A stretch of 39,980 nucleotides of DNA from a virus (Duplodnaviria; Caudoviricetes), in the IMG/VR virus record IMGVR_UViG_3300032243_000128, positions 1 to 39,980 of that record; one strand, written 5' to 3'. Below the pieces are notes generated by a model. It saw nothing but the letters and a program-made list of their open reading frames with translations. It made no database searches and was not told where the DNA came from. Both the position numbers and the translations under genes were made by a program. Below are positions 28,974 through 39,720 of this stretch, one piece after another (positions within the stretch are counted from its first letter, which is position 1; each line of letters begins with the position of its first letter).

Positions 28974-30512
28974 TTAGTAGTACGCCGCAGACCGGCGTTT
29001 GAAAAATCGGGGTTCGTCTGGTTCATCCGTGTCAATACGGATAAAACCACCTTGTCTGACTCGCAGCAGTGCTTGGGTGGTCGTGTCAACATAGTCATCG
29101 TTCTCTCCCACAGGGAAAGACGCAACCTCTTCTATCACTTCGCGTGCCCAGCGTGTGTCAGGTGCCCACACCAGACCAGATGTAAACATGTCGGCTACGG
29201 CGTTGACACGCACCATCTTATCGTTTCCACGGCTCGGTGTAAATTCCTGCACGGGGATGCCCATGTTGCGTAACTCTTGGATCAGTGGCCCACCAGCGGC
29301 TTTCTTCTCCACAATGAACGCATCAGGCTCCCACTCTTTGTAATGTTTCAAAGCAGTAATTTTAAGTTCTGGAAATGGCATCCTATCTTTAAAACCATCC
29401 AACAAAATTACTTGCGCCGCGTTGTTCTCTTCTTCGTTGTAGAACACACCCCACGTTGTGCACGCGCTGTAGTCAGATGTGCTCTTGGTCTCGTGCGCCG
29501 TATCCCAGCTCTGGATTATGTACTCACAGTCTGGTGGTGTATCGCTTGGCCAAATGCGCCAGTGCTTTCTGGCAATGATCGCTGAGTTGTCGCTTGTCGG
29601 CTGTTGCATGTACTGGGCGTTCCAGTACTTTGGATCCATTGCAGACTTGGCACTTAGTAAAGACTCCAGCGGCCATTGCTCTGGCCAGAGCGACTTCTCG
29701 TTGTCCGTTCCTTCATGCAGGATGGCTGGTAGCTCTACGATCTCCCATGTAGGAGAGTCTGGGTTCTTTACTTGGTAGTCGATCAAACGTCCGGTCAAGT
29801 CCAGCTTACCCCAGCGCGTCATGATGACAATGATCGCACCGCCCGGCATCAAACGCTGGAGTGGGCCTGTTTGAAACCAACTCCACGCTGTATCAAACGC
29901 CAGTCGGCTGTTTGCCTTTACGTCTTGTTCTGAGTGTGGGTCGTCGATAACGAATAAATCAGCGCCGCGACCGGCAAGAGCACCACCAACACCAGCAGCG
30001 TAATACTGGCCCCCAGCAGCAGTACTCCACTTTCCAGCAGCTTTCTGGTCATCTGCAATAAGAGTTTGAGGAAACAGTTCATGGTAATGTTCATCATCCA
30101 GTAAGTTACGAACCCGACGACCAAAGTCTTCGGACAAAGAAGCTGTGTGCGTTCCCATGATGATCTTCTTATTAGGGAAATTACCTAGAAAATACGCGGG
30201 GAACAGGTAGCTGGAAAACTCAGACTTACCCATACGTGGCGCAATATTGATGATGACGCGCTTCTTTTCTCCTCTGATTACCGCATCGAAGATGCGTGCC
30301 AGCTTCCTATGATGCGGCCCAACTTTGAATCCGGGGTATACATGCTTGGCAAACTCCAACATGTTGGTGCGTCCAGACACCAGCTTATATCTCTTCTCCC
30401 TTTCTTCTAACATGTCCATGAGTTCAATCTTTTCTTTGAGGCTCATAGTGGGTAAGGCACGTTGGATTGCCTGTATTTCCCCAGTGTTTAACGTTAGACT
30501 TTCAAGATTCAT
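28974..30512 (-). CDS. terL: Terminase large subunit
   Basis: Walker A-like 'NIAPRMGKS', Walker B 'LFVIDDPH', 'IMTRW', 'AQYMQQP'; RNase H-like nuclease 'SWDTA...DDYVD'. Confidence 0.95.
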   Translation of the reverse strand: MNLESLTLNTGEIQAIQRALPTMSLKEKIELMDMLEEREKRYKLVSGRTNMLEFAKHVYPGFKVGPHHRKLARIFDAVIRGEKKRVIINIAPRMGKSEFSSYLFPAYFLGNFPNKKIIMGTHTASLSEDFGRRVRNLLDDEHYHELFPQTLIADDQKAAGKWSTAAGGQYYAAGVGGALAGRGADLFVIDDPHSEQDVKANSRLAFDTAWSWFQTGPLQRLMPGGAIIVIMTRWGKLDLTGRLIDYQVKNPDSPTWEIVELPAILHEGTDNEKSLWPEQWPLESLLSAKSAMDPKYWNAQYMQQPTSDNSAIIARKHWRIWPSDTPPDCEYIIQSWDTAHETKSTSDYSACTTWGVFYNEEENNAAQVILLDGFKDRMPFPELKITALKHYKEWEPDAFIVEKKAAGGPLIQELRNMGIPVQEFTPSRGNDKMVRVNAVADMFTSGLVWAPDTRWAREVIEEVASFPVGENDDYVDTTTQALLRVRQGGFIRIDTDEPDEPRFFKRRSAAYY

Positions 30513-31101
30513 CTGGGGTAGCCGGTAAGGGGTTGCTTACTTCTATGTCTTCAATTGGTTCAGCGTCGGTCACGTTCATGAACTTGGCAAGCTTGTCCTT
30601 GAGCTTTTTGTCGATTTCTTCGTCGGTCAGATCTGTCTTTTTGACTTCAATCTTGTCGGTGAACAATCCAACTTCCGTGACCTTGCCCAACAATCCCAAC
30701 GCTTTTAGTCGGATATTGGCGTTGGGGTTTTCGCATTCTTCCAACAGTTTGGCCACTGTGTAACCACGTAGCTCTCTAGCCTGATGCACAAATTCCCAGT
30801 CATACGCTGTCAGCATACCCACCAGATGTTGCACTGCAACAGGCGTTTTAATCTGGGTTAGATGTTCGTGCGTGATTTCTGCTGGCGCGGAAGAGATGAG
30901 GTTTGTGAAAGATGCGCGTGCCGCTTGGACTTCTGCTTGAGTGACCACTGTATCTGTGTCAGCCGCACCCAACCCTTTCAACCACTCGGTTGTATTAACC
31001 TTGGCGTCGATTACATCCGCCGGATGTTCTTTTTCAAGCGGCGTAGGTTTACCGGAGTAATCAATTACTTCAGGTTCAAATTCAATTAAGTGTTCTAGCA
31101 T
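30502..31101 (-). CDS. Terminase small subunit (putative)
   Basis: 199 aa overlapping the TerL start; 'RLKALGLLGK...VGLFTDKIEV' resembles the TerS oligomerisation C-terminus. Confidence 0.65.
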   Translation of the reverse strand: MLEHLIEFEPEVIDYSGKPTPLEKEHPADVIDAKVNTTEWLKGLGAADTDTVVTQAEVQAARASFTNLISSAPAEITHEHLTQIKTPVAVQHLVGMLTAYDWEFVHQARELRGYTVAKLLEECENPNANIRLKALGLLGKVTEVGLFTDKIEVKKTDLTDEEIDKKLKDKLAKFMNVTDAEPIEDIEVSNPLPATPDES

Positions 31102-31116
31102 CAGCGCATAAGTCCC

Positions 31117-31145
31117 TTGTACCTGCGATGCGCGGAGTGTATACT
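31117..31145 (+). promoter_or_regulatory. Sigma70-like promoter for candidate sRNA
   Basis: TTGTAC-N17-TATACT. Confidence 0.55.
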
Positions 31146-31165
31146 ACTTTTAAGTGATGCGGCAA
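31136..31165 (-). promoter_or_regulatory. Possible promoter for terS/late operon overlapping the sRNA promoter
   Basis: TTGCCG-N18-TACACT on the minus strand, 35 nt upstream of ATG 31101. Confidence 0.35.
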
Positions 31166-31239
31166 GCAGTTGTCCGTTGCTTCTCCTCGGTTGTTGGTTC
31201 GACCGTTCAGCCCCCGTCAGAAATGCCGGGGGTTTTTTT
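31152..31239 (+). ncRNA. Candidate small RNA with exposed anti-Shine-Dalgarno seed
   Basis: Promoter upstream, three hairpins, unpaired CTCCT between hairpins 1 and 2, intrinsic terminator, no plausible ORF. Confidence 0.55.
31210..31239 (+). terminator. Rho-independent terminator
   Basis: CCCCCG-tca-GAAA-tgc-CGGGGG-TTTTTTT. Confidence 0.8.
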
Positions 31240-31247
31240 ATGGATTG

Positions 31248-31265
31248 TTGTCCAGTGTTGGACAA
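31248..31265. promoter_or_regulatory. Operator-like palindrome TTGTCCA-N4-TGGACAA
   Basis: Perfect 7-bp arms; same architecture as 39132..39149. Confidence 0.55.
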
Positions 31266-31271
31266 GAGATT

Positions 31272-31318
31272 TTATAATTTTTTATAAAAATTTATAAGAG
31301 TGGTATAAAGTATTACAA
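31272..31318. repeat. Helically phased TTATAA repeats
   Basis: TTATAA at 31272, 31282, 31292; gTATAA 31303; TTAcAA 31313. Confidence 0.7.
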
Positions 31319-31504
31319 AAGTGCTGAGAATGGTTGGGGAATAGTGTTCACACGGAACGGGGCATGACGCAGCCAACAGGGGTGGTGGGGGGTAGGTGGG
31401 GTCATCCATCGGGGAAGCTTTTTAAAGTTCTCATTCCCCCCAGAGTTTTAAACTGAAGGTGTTGCTGTCGAGGGACGACAGTAACAAATGCCCTACATCG
31501 GGGC

Positions 31505-31530
31505 AAATGGGGGTGAGCTTACCCCCATTT
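31505..31530. repeat. 26-bp palindrome, copy 1
   Basis: AAATGGGGGT-GAGCTT-ACCCCCATTT. Confidence 0.95.
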
Positions 31531-31558
31531 TTTGTTAGTTAAATCAAGGAGTTCTACC

Positions 31559-31957
31559 ATGCCAAATCGTAAGTCAGTTGTTCTCGCATTCATCTCAACT
31601 AAGCAGGCGCACGATGTTGCCATTGCCAACTTAGTGGCGGACATGAAAGGCACGTCATACATCAAGTATCGTGCCGAAGCTGCTGCCATCATTGGTGCGA
31701 AGTATTCAGTTGAGCCCCATGTGAGTCAACTCAAGAAGTGGATGACATTCGAGAAGGACACAGCAGCAGAGCAGGCTTTGTCCGCATTGATGAAACACCA
31801 CCCAAAACGTCCTACCAGTGGTAGCACTGCGCCTGCTGTGACATTGCCCAAGGCAACTTTCAAGGCTGTGCAAACTACCATCATCGAAGGTGAGCTGACC
31901 AAGGCTCAATTCGAATTACTCATCAGCGAGTTGCGTGCAACCATCCAATTCGTTTAA
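31559..31957 (+). CDS. Hypothetical early protein
   Basis: ATG 31559 after AAGGAG; flanked by palindrome copies 1 and 2. Confidence 0.8.
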   Translation: MPNRKSVVLAFISTKQAHDVAIANLVADMKGTSYIKYRAEAAAIIGAKYSVEPHVSQLKKWMTFEKDTAAEQALSALMKHHPKRPTSGSTAPAVTLPKATFKAVQTTIIEGELTKAQFELLISELRATIQFV

Positions 31958-32358: not shown

Positions 32359-32375
32359 GATAAGGAGAAACAACC

Positions 32376-32584: not shown

Positions 32585-32600
32585 CACAAGGAGAAACACC

Positions 32601-33911: not shown

Positions 33912-33972
33912 GGTCAGCGGAGATTGGGCTATGCCGCTGACCACCTCGATACTAGCCTATTGGAGAAGCAAA

Positions 33973-34206: not shown

Positions 34207-34218
34207 AGGAGAAGCATC

Positions 34219-34362
34219 ATGAAAGTGAGAAAGATAAAACAACGACAGCTCACGCTGTTCAAGCGCCACGCATTCAAAAGATTCTTGGCAAAGATAGACG
34301 CAGGCGGTTACACCGCATACGACTGGAGAGACGACAGCTTTTGGGAGGAGAAAGCATTGTGA
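34219..34362 (+). CDS. Hypothetical protein (47 aa)
   Basis: Not in ORF track; AAGGAGAAGC SD; MKVRKIKQRQLTLFKRHAFKRFL...EEKAL; GTGA overlap with next gene. Confidence 0.65.
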   Translation: MKVRKIKQRQLTLFKRHAFKRFLAKIDAGGYTAYDWRDDSFWEEKAL

Positions 34363-35113: not shown

Positions 35114-35168
35114 CATCGACGTGTGTCTCACACACAAAACAAAACTAAATTAACTTTGGAGAAGTAAC

Positions 35169-36977
35169 ATGAAACTGTACCTCATTTCTTTTGTCCCTAG
35201 CGACACTGACAATCACGCCACTCGCACCCTGTTATTAGTTAACGCACTTGGTGAGTTCAAGGGGCTTGAGCTGTCTGACAGTTGTGTCGCGCAGATCGGC
35301 GTTCCCAATGCCGAGATCAGCTACCACAGCTGGGATCATCCACACAGCATCTTCAGATTCATCGACAGCTGGGATGAGTTAATGGCAGCCATTGAGTCAT
35401 TCCGTAACAAGCTTGCGACTGCGTTCGATTGCGAGGTGACTGCCAATGTGCAGGAATTAACGGGCGACGCACGCAAGTGGTTCTTGACTGTCGGTATGTG
35501 TGAGCTAGTGTGTCGTTGCCTTGACTCTATCGTTGGTAGCCTGCCATATGGCGGTGAGAACAACAAGCGCGAACGTTTGGACGATCTCACTGCCCATATA
35601 AGTTCTCGTGTTGGCAAGAAAACTACACCTTTCATTAGCTGGAAGGGTCAGCACTATGAAAACCCTTACAGCTACTCGTACCACAAGACGAAGGCTCGCC
35701 ACATCGGTGAGGCTATCGCTCAGTCCATCCGAGATGGTTGCGATAGGTTCAGCGGGGAGTTCATGCCCGACTACGATACCAACTCTAGTCTGTATCAACG
35801 CTTCGTACAAGCCGCGTCTGCTGTGTTAGGTGCTCAAGACATTAGCCTTGAGATTGTCGAGCAGTACTGCGACCACTGGGATTATCCACACAACACATCC
35901 GAGGTGAGCATTGGGCGTGGTCGCTATCGTTCCTACTGTCAATGCTGTGTTGAGGACAACGAGGTAGTCGTTGAGACATATGACACTGGCGTCTTGATGT
36001 TGCGTGATAACGCGTACTTCAACGACAACAATGATGAGTGGTATGAGAACGAGCCAGAGGATCTGTACGATGACAACGACGAGGATGATGACAATGATAC
36101 TAGTCGCCTAATGTCATACAGAACCAACATACTTAAGGTGCTTAGCAAGGATGGTTCGTTCGAGTCGTCTGCGTTCGGTGAGTTCCACATGGGCATCGAG
36201 CTCGAGCTTGCGACCAACGGCTTTGTCCACGAGGCGGTCGATGATCTGCGTAGCCAGCTCGGTGAGGACTACATCATCTGTAAGTCGGATGGCTCGTTGC
36301 CTTCGGGCGGTGTCGAGATTGTCACGACTCCACGCGGCTTAGCTGACCACATCAAACGCTTCAAGGCATGGCAAGTCAGCAGTCTGTATCGTGCATGGAA
36401 CACAGGCGTGTGCGGTATGCACGTGCATCTTGACTCTCATGCGTTCACTCGCATGACGTTGGGTAAGTTCATCGTGTTCATCAATGACGCTAAGAATGCC
36501 GATTTCATCCGCAAGATCGCAGGTCGTCATCCACACATTGACAGCCAAGCGCAGTCATACTGTGCCGCTGAGGGGCAGGAAGTTCTTAACAATCCATCCA
36601 AGGCGTTGAAGGGTAAGAGCACTAACCGCTATTACATGGTCAACACCACGTGCTTGCGTAGAGCAGAGGCCGAACGCTTGGGTGTGCATTATGTTGGTGA
36701 GCGTCAGTTCGATACTGTCGAGCTTCGCATCTTCCGCGCATCCCTCAAGAAAGAGCGACTGCTTGCACAGATCGAGTTCACTCATGCTGTCGTCATGTTC
36801 TGTCGCATCGCAAGTATGCGTGACCTCGATGGCGTGTCGTTCCTCAAGTGGCTCAAGGCTACCGACAACCGCTATCCACATCTGTCTGACTGGTACGGCA
36901 TCCGCCGTCGTGTGGGTGCGAAGAATGCTGCACCCACTGAGTCGATCTGCACTGACACCATCGCGTCTACCGACTAA
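35169..36977 (+). CDS. Putative amidoligase (COOH-NH2 ligase, glutamine synthetase-like fold) with long N-terminal extension
   Basis: 'MGIELEL', 'SDGSL..GVEIVT.P', 'CGMHVH', 'RY..VN', 'TVELRIF' motifs. Confidence 0.85.
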   Translation: MKLYLISFVPSDTDNHATRTLLLVNALGEFKGLELSDSCVAQIGVPNAEISYHSWDHPHSIFRFIDSWDELMAAIESFRNKLATAFDCEVTANVQELTGDARKWFLTVGMCELVCRCLDSIVGSLPYGGENNKRERLDDLTAHISSRVGKKTTPFISWKGQHYENPYSYSYHKTKARHIGEAIAQSIRDGCDRFSGEFMPDYDTNSSLYQRFVQAASAVLGAQDISLEIVEQYCDHWDYPHNTSEVSIGRGRYRSYCQCCVEDNEVVVETYDTGVLMLRDNAYFNDNNDEWYENEPEDLYDDNDEDDDNDTSRLMSYRTNILKVLSKDGSFESSAFGEFHMGIELELATNGFVHEAVDDLRSQLGEDYIICKSDGSLPSGGVEIVTTPRGLADHIKRFKAWQVSSLYRAWNTGVCGMHVHLDSHAFTRMTLGKFIVFINDAKNADFIRKIAGRHPHIDSQAQSYCAAEGQEVLNNPSKALKGKSTNRYYMVNTTCLRRAEAERLGVHYVGERQFDTVELRIFRASLKKERLLAQIEFTHAVVMFCRIASMRDLDGVSFLKWLKATDNRYPHLSDWYGIRRRVGAKNAAPTESICTDTIASTD

Positions 36978-37008
36978 TCCATAACACTCAAACGAAAGGA
37001 ACATCACT

Positions 37009-38121
37009 ATGTGTTTAATCATCACTGGCACTTCTGCCAAAATCCGTTCGACTCTGCTCGACACACACGCACTCATCAGCGACATCTACACCAGTAATCC
37101 TGATGGCATCGGCATCATGTATGCAACGACCAAGGGCTTGAAGGTTGTCAAGGTATTGCCTAAGTCTCTCGCTGACGCAACGCAGTTCATTACCAAGTTA
37201 CCCAACGATGATCGTGAGCTTGCGATTCACTTCCGCTGGACTACGCATGGTCATACCGATATGACTAACTGCCATCCATACGATGTCATCCCTGGCTATG
37301 TTGCGATGATGCACAACGGCGTGTTGCATACAGGCAATGCTGCCGACAAGTCCAAGTCCGACACATGGCATTTCATCCATGACTATCTTGCCAGTCCTGT
37401 TGCTGAGCATCCTGCTCTCGTGCACAACGAGAAGTTCCTCGACATGGTTGCCGAGTTCATCGGTGACAATCGCTTCGTGTTCATGGATGGTGATGGCAAG
37501 ATGAGCCATGTCAACTATGACCAAGGCATCGAGCACGACGGCTTGTGGTTCAGCAATACGTATGCATGGAGACCTAGCCGATTGATCCCGTCGTATCAGT
37601 ACTCGACTAAGTATTCCGCACGTTACTACGACAGTATGTATGAGGACTACAAGTATGACAACTCATACGGCGGTTACAAGTCCCTGCCTTCCAACTCATG
37701 GAAGGACGAGGAGGATGCGTATGAGATCAAGCCCCGCAAGTTATCTGCACATGACCCTGCGTGGGACGAGGATGACTACGAGTTTGCTGATGACACAGCG
37801 CTGACGCTTGACCCTATGGACTTGCTTGATGTCTTGATGGGTGCAGATGTTGACTCTGTGTCAGACCTGCTCGAGGAGGCACCAGAGACTACTATAAACA
37901 TTCTCTGCAACACGTTCACGTGTGAGCCAACCCCGTGGGTTAAGGCTAGCGATATGTCCGTGCTTGAGAACAGCATCTACCAAGCGTTCCTTGCTGGCGA
38001 TGCTGTTGCCTTGCTGGACACTGTGGAGGCTGGGCTGAATGGTAACGTAGCTGACGTTGCTTGCTATTACCTGAACTGGTCGTACAGACTGGACAAGCAG
38101 GTATTGCCAGCATTGCTGTAA
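37009..38121 (+). CDS. Class II (Ntn) glutamine amidotransferase
   Basis: Cys2 nucleophile (MCLII), 'NPDGIG', 'HFRWTTHG', 'NCHPY', 'HNG', 'SDT', 'WFSN'; acidic C-terminal tail. Confidence 0.9.
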   Translation: MCLIITGTSAKIRSTLLDTHALISDIYTSNPDGIGIMYATTKGLKVVKVLPKSLADATQFITKLPNDDRELAIHFRWTTHGHTDMTNCHPYDVIPGYVAMMHNGVLHTGNAADKSKSDTWHFIHDYLASPVAEHPALVHNEKFLDMVAEFIGDNRFVFMDGDGKMSHVNYDQGIEHDGLWFSNTYAWRPSRLIPSYQYSTKYSARYYDSMYEDYKYDNSYGGYKSLPSNSWKDEEDAYEIKPRKLSAHDPAWDEDDYEFADDTALTLDPMDLLDVLMGADVDSVSDLLEEAPETTINILCNTFTCEPTPWVKASDMSVLENSIYQAFLAGDAVALLDTVEAGLNGNVADVACYYLNWSYRLDKQVLPALL

Positions 38122-38151: not shown

Positions 38152-38169
38152 TTTAAACCAAGGAGAAGA

Positions 38170-38592
38170 ATGATGAAGATAGCAGTACTGAACACACCTT
38201 ATGTAGATTTGGATGACTTGATTGAAGAACACGGAGAAACCAAAGCAGAAGCCTTGTTCGAGCAATTCAGAAATACACCGCCAAAGGGAGAACCCGATAA
38301 GGAGTTTGCACAAAGCATTGTTGACCGCTTGCCGAAAGGTATGGCGGTGCTGGCAAAAGTCGAATGGATGTTAGAAAACCCCGAATCTGAATCGGATTTG
38401 CATTGGTGCCAGCTCTACCACTTTGACTTCCCAACAATAAAAAGCTGGGGGATGATTGAGGTAGGAGGCAACCACTACTACGCATATGTCGAGGGCGATG
38501 ACAATGGTGGTGAAACATGGAAGCATCAGGGGGACGCTATCCAGTATCTTGAAGACACAGTTACACGATTAGGAAAGGAGAAAGCAAAATGA
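38170..38592 (+). CDS. Hypothetical acidic protein
   Basis: ATG 38170/38173 after AAGGAGAAG. Confidence 0.75.
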   Translation: MMKIAVLNTPYVDLDDLIEEHGETKAEALFEQFRNTPPKGEPDKEFAQSIVDRLPKGMAVLAKVEWMLENPESESDLHWCQLYHFDFPTIKSWGMIEVGGNHYYAYVEGDDNGGETWKHQGDAIQYLEDTVTRLGKEKAK

Positions 38593-39171: not shown

Positions 39172-39192
39172 TTTTATTCAAGGAGGAGCATC

Positions 39193-39720
39193 ATGCCAGA
39201 CTTAAAAAGCGAAATGAGTAAGGTTCTCAATGAGTGGGAACAAGACGCACAACAAACACAGGAGAAGCAAGTGCCAAAACAAATATTCACACCAACCAAC
39301 AACGTAACGCAAGAGACGTTTATCTACGTGCGAGACAACCCAAACAAAACAAGCAGTGAGGTATGCGATGCGCTTGAGGTGAGGGGATTCAAGCGGTCAT
39401 CTGTTGGGTCGTTGCTCACGCAGTTTGTGAAGCAGAATCAAATGACAAAAGACCATAACAGCAGGCTTAGAACCTCTGTGCCGAGGTACGTACCGCTGAA
39501 GTCCACAAGACAGTTAAGAGCAGAAGGCAAGCGAGCAAACAAGATTGTACAAATCAAGAGCAAGCCAAAGAGTGCAGGCATCGCCGCTTTGCATGTCGAT
39601 ACTACGACACAAACATCTTTCTCAGTAACACCGTGGACTACAGACGGCATCATCAGCAAACTCAGCGTCATACAAGCGCGTGCCTTGTACGATGAGCTGA
39701 AGAAAATCTTTGGAGGTTGA
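39193..39720 (+). CDS. Putative winged-helix DNA-binding protein
   Basis: AGGAGG SD; 'FIYVRDNPNKTSSEVCDAL...SSVGSLLTQFVKQNQM' HTH-like segment. Confidence 0.6.
   Translation: MPDLKSEMSKVLNEWEQDAQQTQEKQVPKQIFTPTNNVTQETFIYVRDNPNKTSSEVCDALEVRGFKRSSVGSLLTQFVKQNQMTKDHNSRLRTSVPRYVPLKSTRQLRAEGKRANKIVQIKSKPKSAGIAALHVDTTTQTSFSVTPWTTDGIISKLSVIQARALYDELKKIFGG

Follow-up and report, generated by a model that had tools for sequence, protein, structure and literature searches.

Here, we identify a predicted small RNA gene next to the putative terminase small subunit gene (terS) of a group of uncultured phages, and we suggest, with confidence a little above even, that its product is a late trans-acting repressor of early translation that acts by toehold pairing over tagged early ribosome-binding sites (RBSs). 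The DNA analysed (the window, 39,980 nucleotides) is a 40-kb phage fragment in which the packaging and structural arm (terL, portal, capsid, tail) lies on the − strand, while the + strand arm carries small genes plus amidoligase-like and glutamine amidotransferase-like genes. In complete relatives of ~61-68 kb, the + arm runs on into genes for DNA polymerase, exonuclease, SNF2 helicase and primase; we refer to this arm, replication genes included, as early, a label inferred from gene content. The group is abundant, with ~1000 stored stretches estimated for one terS query.

Judged by fold and conservation, the locus is a discrete, conserved non-coding RNA gene on the + strand that lies outside Rfam. 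Its elements and neighbours are as follows.

30502 to 31101, − strand: putative terS, assigned by its position before terL; no family match
31117 to 31122, + strand: predicted −35 box TTGTAC of the RNA promoter (TTG in 82/84 distinct variants, with a fixed 17-nt spacing)
31140 to 31145, + strand: predicted −10 box TATACT of the RNA promoter (final T in 84/84 RNA-bearing variants, under a cut-out pattern that admitted C or T at the last place of the consensus TTG-N3-17 nt-TAYACT)
31136 to 31141, − strand: predicted −10 box TACACT of a divergent promoter towards putative terS, overlapping the −10 box of the RNA
31160 to 31165, − strand: predicted −35 box TTGCCG of the terS-side promoter, inside the first hairpin of the RNA
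31152 to 31239, + strand: predicted small RNA of 88 nt with three hairpins, supported by fold (z −3.9), its own covariance model and covariation
31152 to 31182, + strand: P1, in which 31152-59 pairs with 31175-82, extended by 31161-65 with 31170-74; wobble-rich
31176 to 31187, + strand: seed GUUGCUUCUCCU, the complement of AGGAGAAGCAAC, with CUCCU (31183-87) unpaired
31188 to 31205, + strand: P2 hairpin, in which the sequence varies and the pairing is kept (4/4 pairs change on both sides)
31209 to 31239, + strand: P3, the predicted intrinsic terminator hairpin plus U tract (by fold; 97.7% of cells paired)

The promoter boxes, CTCCT, second hairpin and terminator described in an initial annotation of this DNA are all present at these positions. 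The first hairpin proposed there (31164-69 with 31177-82) is neither the minimum-energy nor the conserved fold and is replaced by P1; CUCCU is unpaired under both versions.

Several lines of evidence support the RNA gene. First, the RNA region folds at −34.8 kcal/mol (z = −3.9 relative to 200 shuffles), and the RNA's own covariance model gives a single strong match in the window, at the RNA (85.7 bits). Second, three terS searches yielded ~210 loci, and in most relatives the RNA gene sits upstream of the putative terS. By seed, these loci comprise 126 with GCTTCTCC, 43 with GCTTTCTCC, 8 with GCTATCTCC, 6 with ACTTCTC and 1 with GCTCTCTCC; 18 have no or another seed, and 6 are too short. At 182 loci, the promoter, seed and U tract could all be extracted, giving 122 distinct RNAs of 72-140 nt, of which 111 form three helices with CUCC unpaired and 115 fold better on the + than on the − strand; the mean unpaired probability of the CUCCU segment is 0.93-0.98. 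Third, in a model-fitted alignment of 51 sequences, which by its construction leans towards structure, 91% of cells pair and 13/21 pairs change on both sides, as compared to 41-58% of cells pairing in slid controls. On a plain MAFFT alignment, in which the hairpins are out of register, RNAalifold recovered no more than 5 pairs, all in the terminator, and covariation was therefore counted on the model-fitted alignment. As to transcripts, three sequencing runs match weakly and were available as contigs only; the single RNA run among them contains two 151-nt contigs flanking the RNA and none over it.

P1 contains the 5′ half of the seed. On its seed side, U, G, C and U are kept in 121, 119, 122 and 122 of 122 RNAs, while the partner strand alternates between Watson-Crick and G-U pairs (e.g., U-G 65, C-G 51). 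The seed strand is therefore constrained beyond its role in P1. Moreover, 52/122 seeds extend to a full anti-AUG, which also fits pairing over the start codon. Among close relatives, a TGGCC-N3-GGCCA hairpin module is inserted in or missing from P1 (L003, L009, L014, L023, L048 and L114).

The promoter is predicted to be bidirectional with overlapping −10 boxes, in agreement with the initial suggestion that it overlaps a possible late promoter, here the terS-side one. The predicted starts at 31129 and 31152 are 23 bp apart, which is one of the spacings listed for bidirectional promoters (bioRxiv 10.1101/2020.01.31.928960), and in most RNA-bearing relatives GCAA lies 16 nt behind the terS-side −10 box. 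A promoter and terminator scan of the window listed neither the RNA promoter nor the terminator; the two assignments therefore rest on fold and conservation. Loci that have lost the RNA are informative here. In one RNA-less clade, the + strand −35 box reads GTG and the −10 box TACACC at 11/11 loci, while the terS-side −10 box is kept as TACATT; the terS-side −35 box is missing at 9/11 of these loci and is therefore the weaker element. In a distant set, 6/6 RNA-less loci have TATAGA or TACACC as −10, and 28/29 RNA-bearing loci were scored as having T at the end of the −10 box; at the remaining one (L610), the pattern picked the wrong site. The decay of the + strand promoter with RNA loss thus points to at least two independent losses.

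This co-loss bears on a different explanation, in which the role is a cis-acting or opposite-strand one: a terminator would halt divergent read-through from the terS promoter into a presumed genome end, and the seed would be retained as the RBS, on the minus strand, of a leader peptide or of an extended terS. In favour of this, promoters that fire in both directions require a stop, L604 represents a minimal version consisting of little beyond a CU stretch and a terminator, and an ATG follows the minus-strand Shine-Dalgarno (SD) sequence at 68/146 distinct loci. On the other hand, the window itself has ACG at this place, 78/146 loci lack the ATG, the frames vary with only 2/146 open and in frame into terS, and the minus-strand peptides share nothing. 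Based on these counts, we reject a minus-strand leader peptide or extended terS as a general explanation, and the seed is not the SD of a conserved minus-strand peptide, an outcome that the initial annotation had said would speak against an sRNA. Moreover, a terminator alone would not require P1, P2 or a seed that is invariant and unpaired, and RNA-less lineages dropped the terminator and the + strand promoter together. We therefore consider the cis explanation very unlikely.

Returning to the trans-acting reading, the seed is predicted to pair with the following sites before early genes of the window.

33962 to 33971, + strand: predicted target GGAGAAGCAA before ORF 33973 (duplex −17.0 kcal/mol)
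34207 to 34216, + strand: predicted target AGGAGAAGCA before ORF 34219 (duplex −17.4; −8.3 after opening costs)
34346 to 34356, + strand: predicted bulged target AGGAGAAAGCA before ORF 34359 (duplex −13.3; −8.9 after opening costs)
35158 to 35168, + strand: predicted target GGAGAAGTAAC before the amidoligase-like gene 35169 (duplex −18.6)
38576 to 38586, + strand: predicted bulged target AGGAGAAAGCA before ORF 38589 (duplex −13.9)
39181 to 39190, + strand: predicted target AGGAGGAGCA before ORF 39193, which weakly matches a transcriptional activator PHROG (duplex −16.9)
32363 to 32374, + strand: predicted weaker target AGGAGAAACAAC before ORF 32376 (duplex −13.7)
38161 to 38168, + strand: predicted weaker target AGGAGAAG before ORF 38173 (duplex −12.3)

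These matches and one at 32589 had been proposed initially, and all were recovered in the window, as was AAGGAGT upstream of the late starts named for it. The further claim that the early match exceeds the generic SD also held. When CUCCU is kept constant and the 7-nt extension is permuted, its real order takes rank 1/105 on 15 hand-picked early starts and 60/105 on 39 late starts; the early match therefore goes beyond the universal SD. Among 1024 five-letter extensions, AAGCA ties for first place on 16 early GGAG starts under strict pairing and is fifth with G-U pairs allowed. A pairing scan against controls, as the initial annotation had recommended, likewise preferred early starts over late and sampled bacterial ones: with opening costs and heuristic gene calls, 18 early starts bind better than 47 late starts (p = 3e-4), and −5 kcal/mol is reached by 10/18 early, 5/47 late and 12/226 bacterial starts. 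Within ORF 39193, a perfect AGGAGAAGCA (39260-39273, + strand) is followed by an in-frame GTG at 39271 and may mark a second start or a second binding site.

The same signature recurs across relatives. In ten whole genomes, a GGAGAA(A)GC tag (GGAGAAGC or GGAGAAAGC) precedes 59/267 early vs 2/133 late GGAG starts, 5 of the 59 early tags coming from a stretch present twice in G004; in 400 kb of the candidate host genus, the tag stands at 0/75 GGAG starts. Across 31 genomes of that genus, the long tag followed by ATG was found 4 times, including two occurrences in the metagenome-assembled genome (MAG) that carries a phage fragment. For the short tag followed by ATG, the count is 172 across 121 genomes of the order, with 0-6 per genome; 5 of the 172 lie in G090, and the rarity stands without that genome. 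In the phages, the density is several tags per 20-kb early arm. Full tags are nevertheless found on only about a fifth of early GGAG starts, and the initial wording that the RNA silences the early regulon is thus too strong. SNF2-helicase, DUF7307 and SprT-like orthologues keep the tag in most of the ten genomes.

The initial annotation had named covariation of seed and early RBSs as a check, and here the outcome is divided. Short and long tags stand at 61:58 among 864 unique starts in short-seed phages and at 4:76 among 360 unique starts in long-seed phages, counts that are not independent across phages. In a quick terS tree, long seeds fall into five groups, perhaps from one or two origins; all five have ≤10% short tags, and short-seed groups range from 0 to 100%. 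In a phage with a CUCCA seed, T precedes GGAG at 5/5 tagged starts vs 8/20 of its own untagged starts (p = 0.04) and at 29/218 starts elsewhere. At the helicase, DUF7307 and SprT-like orthologues, the short-seed phages G006 and G007 have the short tag. We suggest that seed and tag have changed together in two or three clades or independent events. Exceptions are also present: several short-seed clades prefer the long tag (short:long 11:26, 1:5 and 0:2), the short-seed phages G010 and G011 have the long tag at two of the helicase, DUF7307 and SprT-like genes, the long-seed phage G002 has the short tag at one of them, and a late gene behind portal carries AGGAGAAGCC in 6 short-seed contexts. Phages with rarer seeds have no exact matching tags at the unique starts counted (0/48 for GCTAT, 0/14 for GCTCT and 0/36 for ACTT), the whole record G016 containing one GGAGATAGC rare-seed tag. 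A late 64-aa gene, considered as avoiding its own seed, gave a mixed result and was dropped.

Lineages without the RNA keep the tags. The RNA-less clade has GGAGAAGC at 6/54 unique early starts, the RNA-less phage G019 has tags at 3/19 starts, and distant RNA-less loci keep GGAGA(A)GTA-type starts; a second RNA copy was not found in the stretches of RNA-less records searched, which are fragments. The tags therefore do not need the RNA, and another cause for them exists as well. In this part of the family, the seed looks adapted to the tags. In distant relatives, found by a separate terS search, the locus holds varied CU-rich RNAs and early starts favour other words: G187, G188 and G062 have no extended seed match to their own early starts, and those of G187 favour GGAGCTTTC. 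A pattern scan for an ACTCCTT seed gave 0 loci with a terS match. As a separate observation, G062 has a strong early tag GGAGAACCA at 10/25 starts (L559-L562) and G187 has GGAGCTTTCAC-type early tags (L550-L553), and in both the terS locus lacks a seed that would match; these tags may be read by a different factor. Altogether, the predicted RNA shows two features of a trans-acting anti-RBS sRNA: own promoter, terminator and non-coding character, as judged by conservation and co-loss only, and a conserved accessible seed that matches unlinked RBSs beyond the SD core, with the exceptions described above.

Anti-RBS sRNAs are known from Burkholderiales, in which Bordetella S17 represses many RBSs, as supported by compensatory mutations (PMC11722255), and Burkholderia ncS27 does likewise (PMC5688073; PMC4603805). 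As reported in these papers, the RF02278 or double-hairpin RNAs (Burkholderia ncS03, ncS05, ncS27 and ncS62, PMC5688073; Bordetella S17, PMC11722255) resemble the phage RNA in having an unpaired CU-rich anti-RBS seed followed by a hairpin, a short U-rich linker and a GCCCC terminator, and in addressing many RBSs, as predicted for the phage RNA. The phage RNA differs by an extra 5′ hairpin that half-masks the seed, by the lack of a second CU loop, by being phage-encoded and by having the phage's own genes as predicted targets. No Rfam family reaches its gathering score in the window, and family membership was rejected. The best weak match, RF02278 (Betaproteobacteria toxic small RNA), scores 18.5 bits (E 0.36) against a cut-off of 50; the order of seed, hairpin, short linker and intrinsic terminator is present, while the seed is UGCUUCUCCU rather than UGUCUCCU and the first-hairpin loop (UUGGUU) has no second CU-rich stretch, such as is present in L458. 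RF02837 (anti-hemB) scores 15.7 bits against a cut-off of 49.5, and C4 antisense RNA (RF01695) gave no match at the gathering score in the window nor at E up to 10 in 31000-31600.

RF02278 is above cut-off in 38/41 genomes of the candidate host genus, where the copies have UUGUCUCCU, a hairpin and a similar terminator. The phage model recovers 10/10 of these host copies at 26-33 bits compared to ≤13.8 bits in 400 kb of host background, with E-values that are rough, and some of its top matches in the order are anti-hemB RNAs. Below every Rfam cut-off, it also matches bacterial seed-hairpin-terminator RNAs (L310-L316, in the order of G021), which point to a group of anti-RBS sRNAs wider than RF02278 and RF02837. 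The seed UGUCUCCU of RF02278 is present in L458, L478, L482, L197 and L613. A scan for the phage promoter plus the host seed, and thus selected for that seed, gave 111 matches, and six loci adjoin a distant terS, besides L197; an RNA with the host-type UGUCUCCU seed shares its locus and promoter with the window RNA in the distant phages L458, L507, L478, L482, L613 and L197. Two distant phage RNAs score 33.3 and 31.3 bits against RF02278, and one of them has the second CU loop. That distant relatives carry the host-type seed suggests capture and retuning, and the phage RNA and the double-hairpin anti-RBS sRNAs of Burkholderiales are probably related, the former having been retuned; alternatively, an AGGAG complement followed by a terminator may have arisen by convergence rather than from a shared origin.

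The probable kinship with host RNAs also gives weight to the idea of an sRNA with general anti-SD or host-directed action, which would mimic the host double-hairpin sRNA after capture and damp host GGAGA-type mRNAs, with the early match a by-product of a favourite strong RBS. This would fit the distant relatives whose RNA at this locus has a UGUCUCCU seed without an extended match to the early starts of the same phage, the scores of host RF02278 copies well above background and the persistence of tags without the RNA. However, the extension as present in this clade has nearly no bacterial matches as opposed to several per early arm, and tag form tracks seed form. We regard the host-directed idea as rather unlikely, if the most serious of the competing explanations.

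We therefore favour repression of the phage's own early translation and suggest the following sequence of events. Host RNA polymerase would read the bidirectional promoter and produce terS/packaging mRNA in one direction and the 88-nt RNA in the other, as suggested by the sequence and by the decayed + strand boxes of RNA-less loci. With its unpaired CUCCU, the RNA would dock on the GGAG of a target, and the target AAGCA would then displace the wobble-rich 5′ strand of P1, resulting in a 10-11 bp duplex over SD and spacer; this strand displacement is inferred from the energies and the one-sided variation. As in related bacterial sRNAs, ribosome loading would be blocked, and late genes, which mostly have GGAGT, GGAGC or no GGAG, would escape. 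As the late operon is served by the same promoter region, the RNA probably acts during the transition from early to late expression. This is the least certain step, and the sigma-70-type boxes could fire early.

Timing is what separates this mechanism from one in which the RNA pairs with early RBSs and brings about no temporal switch: it would already be produced as infection begins, or in a carrier state, and would cap toxic early products or silence superinfecting relatives, in the manner of C4 RNA and P1 ant. Each half of the promoter resembles the sigma-70 type and does not evidently need a late factor, the small fraction of early GGAG starts with a full tag sits easily with such a role, and a tag common to several clades would permit cross-silencing. 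By contrast, the promoter is physically common to the packaging operon, and no integrase is present among 61/83 called proteins of the complete genome G007 or the 35 window proteins. We consider this untimed role distinctly unlikely. A broader version of the switch would also cover its origin: a host Burkholderiales anti-RBS sRNA would have been captured, wired back-to-back to the packaging promoter by way of overlapping −10 boxes, given a wobble-rich guard helix and retuned in its seed to a private tag of early and replication genes, resulting in an RNA-only early-to-late translational switch that operates by toehold strand displacement. We offer this scenario tentatively, as a possibility held at clearly less than even confidence. 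If true, it would be the RNA counterpart of T4 RegB.

Early-translation shut-off by phages is known from proteins such as RegB, and the phage sRNAs of the literature covered here mostly target host genes or one phage operon. In T4, RegB inactivates early mRNAs via GGAG in the SD and spares later genes, thereby easing the early-to-late transition (PMC9409239), as predicted here for the phage RNA; however, it is an early protein nuclease that needs S1, whereas the phage has a predicted base-pairing RNA with specificity in the seed extension. No RegB-named match was present among the PHROG rows listed for the 35 window and 61 G007 proteins, most early proteins being without a family. Cluster K mycobacteriophages also have a conserved extended RBS tag at non-structural genes only, the start-associated sequences, which have been proposed to bind an RNA or protein partner (PMC3203893). 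For these tags, of unrelated sequence and hosts, no partner is identified in that account, whereas the window has a complementary RNA gene that covaries in part. The C4 antisense RNA of phage P1 (RF01695; PMC8198154) is likewise a phage RNA that represses phage genes through pairing; unlike the window RNA, which has no match to its Rfam family, it acts on one operon in lysogeny control. StxS, from the lambdoid late promoter PR′ (PMC7547250), is a short terminated RNA of a late-promoter region that acts as a trans sRNA; it is the terminated leader of the late transcript, whereas the window RNA is divergent from that transcript and has early RBSs as predicted targets. In the literature listings and abstracts covered, together with part of a review (PMC12197685), no phage sRNA was found to repress early genes of its own phage as a class; the candidate list of PMC10690425 may contain one. 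If the proposed mechanism is true, one RNA addressing a class of the phage's own genes via an extended RBS tag would be a simple way of timing the lytic cycle in uncultured phages that are abundant. It would also provide a model, open to testing, for start-associated tags that lack an explanation in other phages, and an example of a host sRNA family that was captured and given new targets. Ready-made controls exist in the naturally occurring seed variants and in the lineages without the RNA.

The closest cultured terL sequences are ~44-53% identical to that of the window, and the putative terS has 0 matches among 50,697 phage records searched for cultured relatives. Cultured relatives gave no match at the DNA level beyond the terminator, and the RNA covariance model had no match in three tested regions. 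The sole hint to a host comes from a MAG titled Limnohabitans, which contains a 1.7-kb terS fragment together with the RNA; this fragment is possibly misbinned. The Limnohabitans phage paper does not mention the nearest cultured matches of the window phages.

The window and its relatives have additional features of interest. Instead of the amidoligase/glutamine-amidotransferase pair (window 35169-38121), 9/10 complete relatives (G001-G011) have an unknown 450-490-aa gene plus an M28 peptidase. Six GGGGGT-N4-(T/C)TACCCCC hairpins lie in intergenic gaps of the early arm (31509, 31964, 32563, 33890, 35092 and 38130, + strand); several directly precede the RBS of a gene, and they may be terminators, processing sites or protein sites. 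Finally, the region behind the RNA (31248-31404) contains TGTC-N4-5-TT(N)GACA at 115/184 loci, AAYASTGT at 177/184 and a G-rich tract at 113/184; these motifs are kept in RNA-less phages too and make the region a candidate genome end or packaging site.
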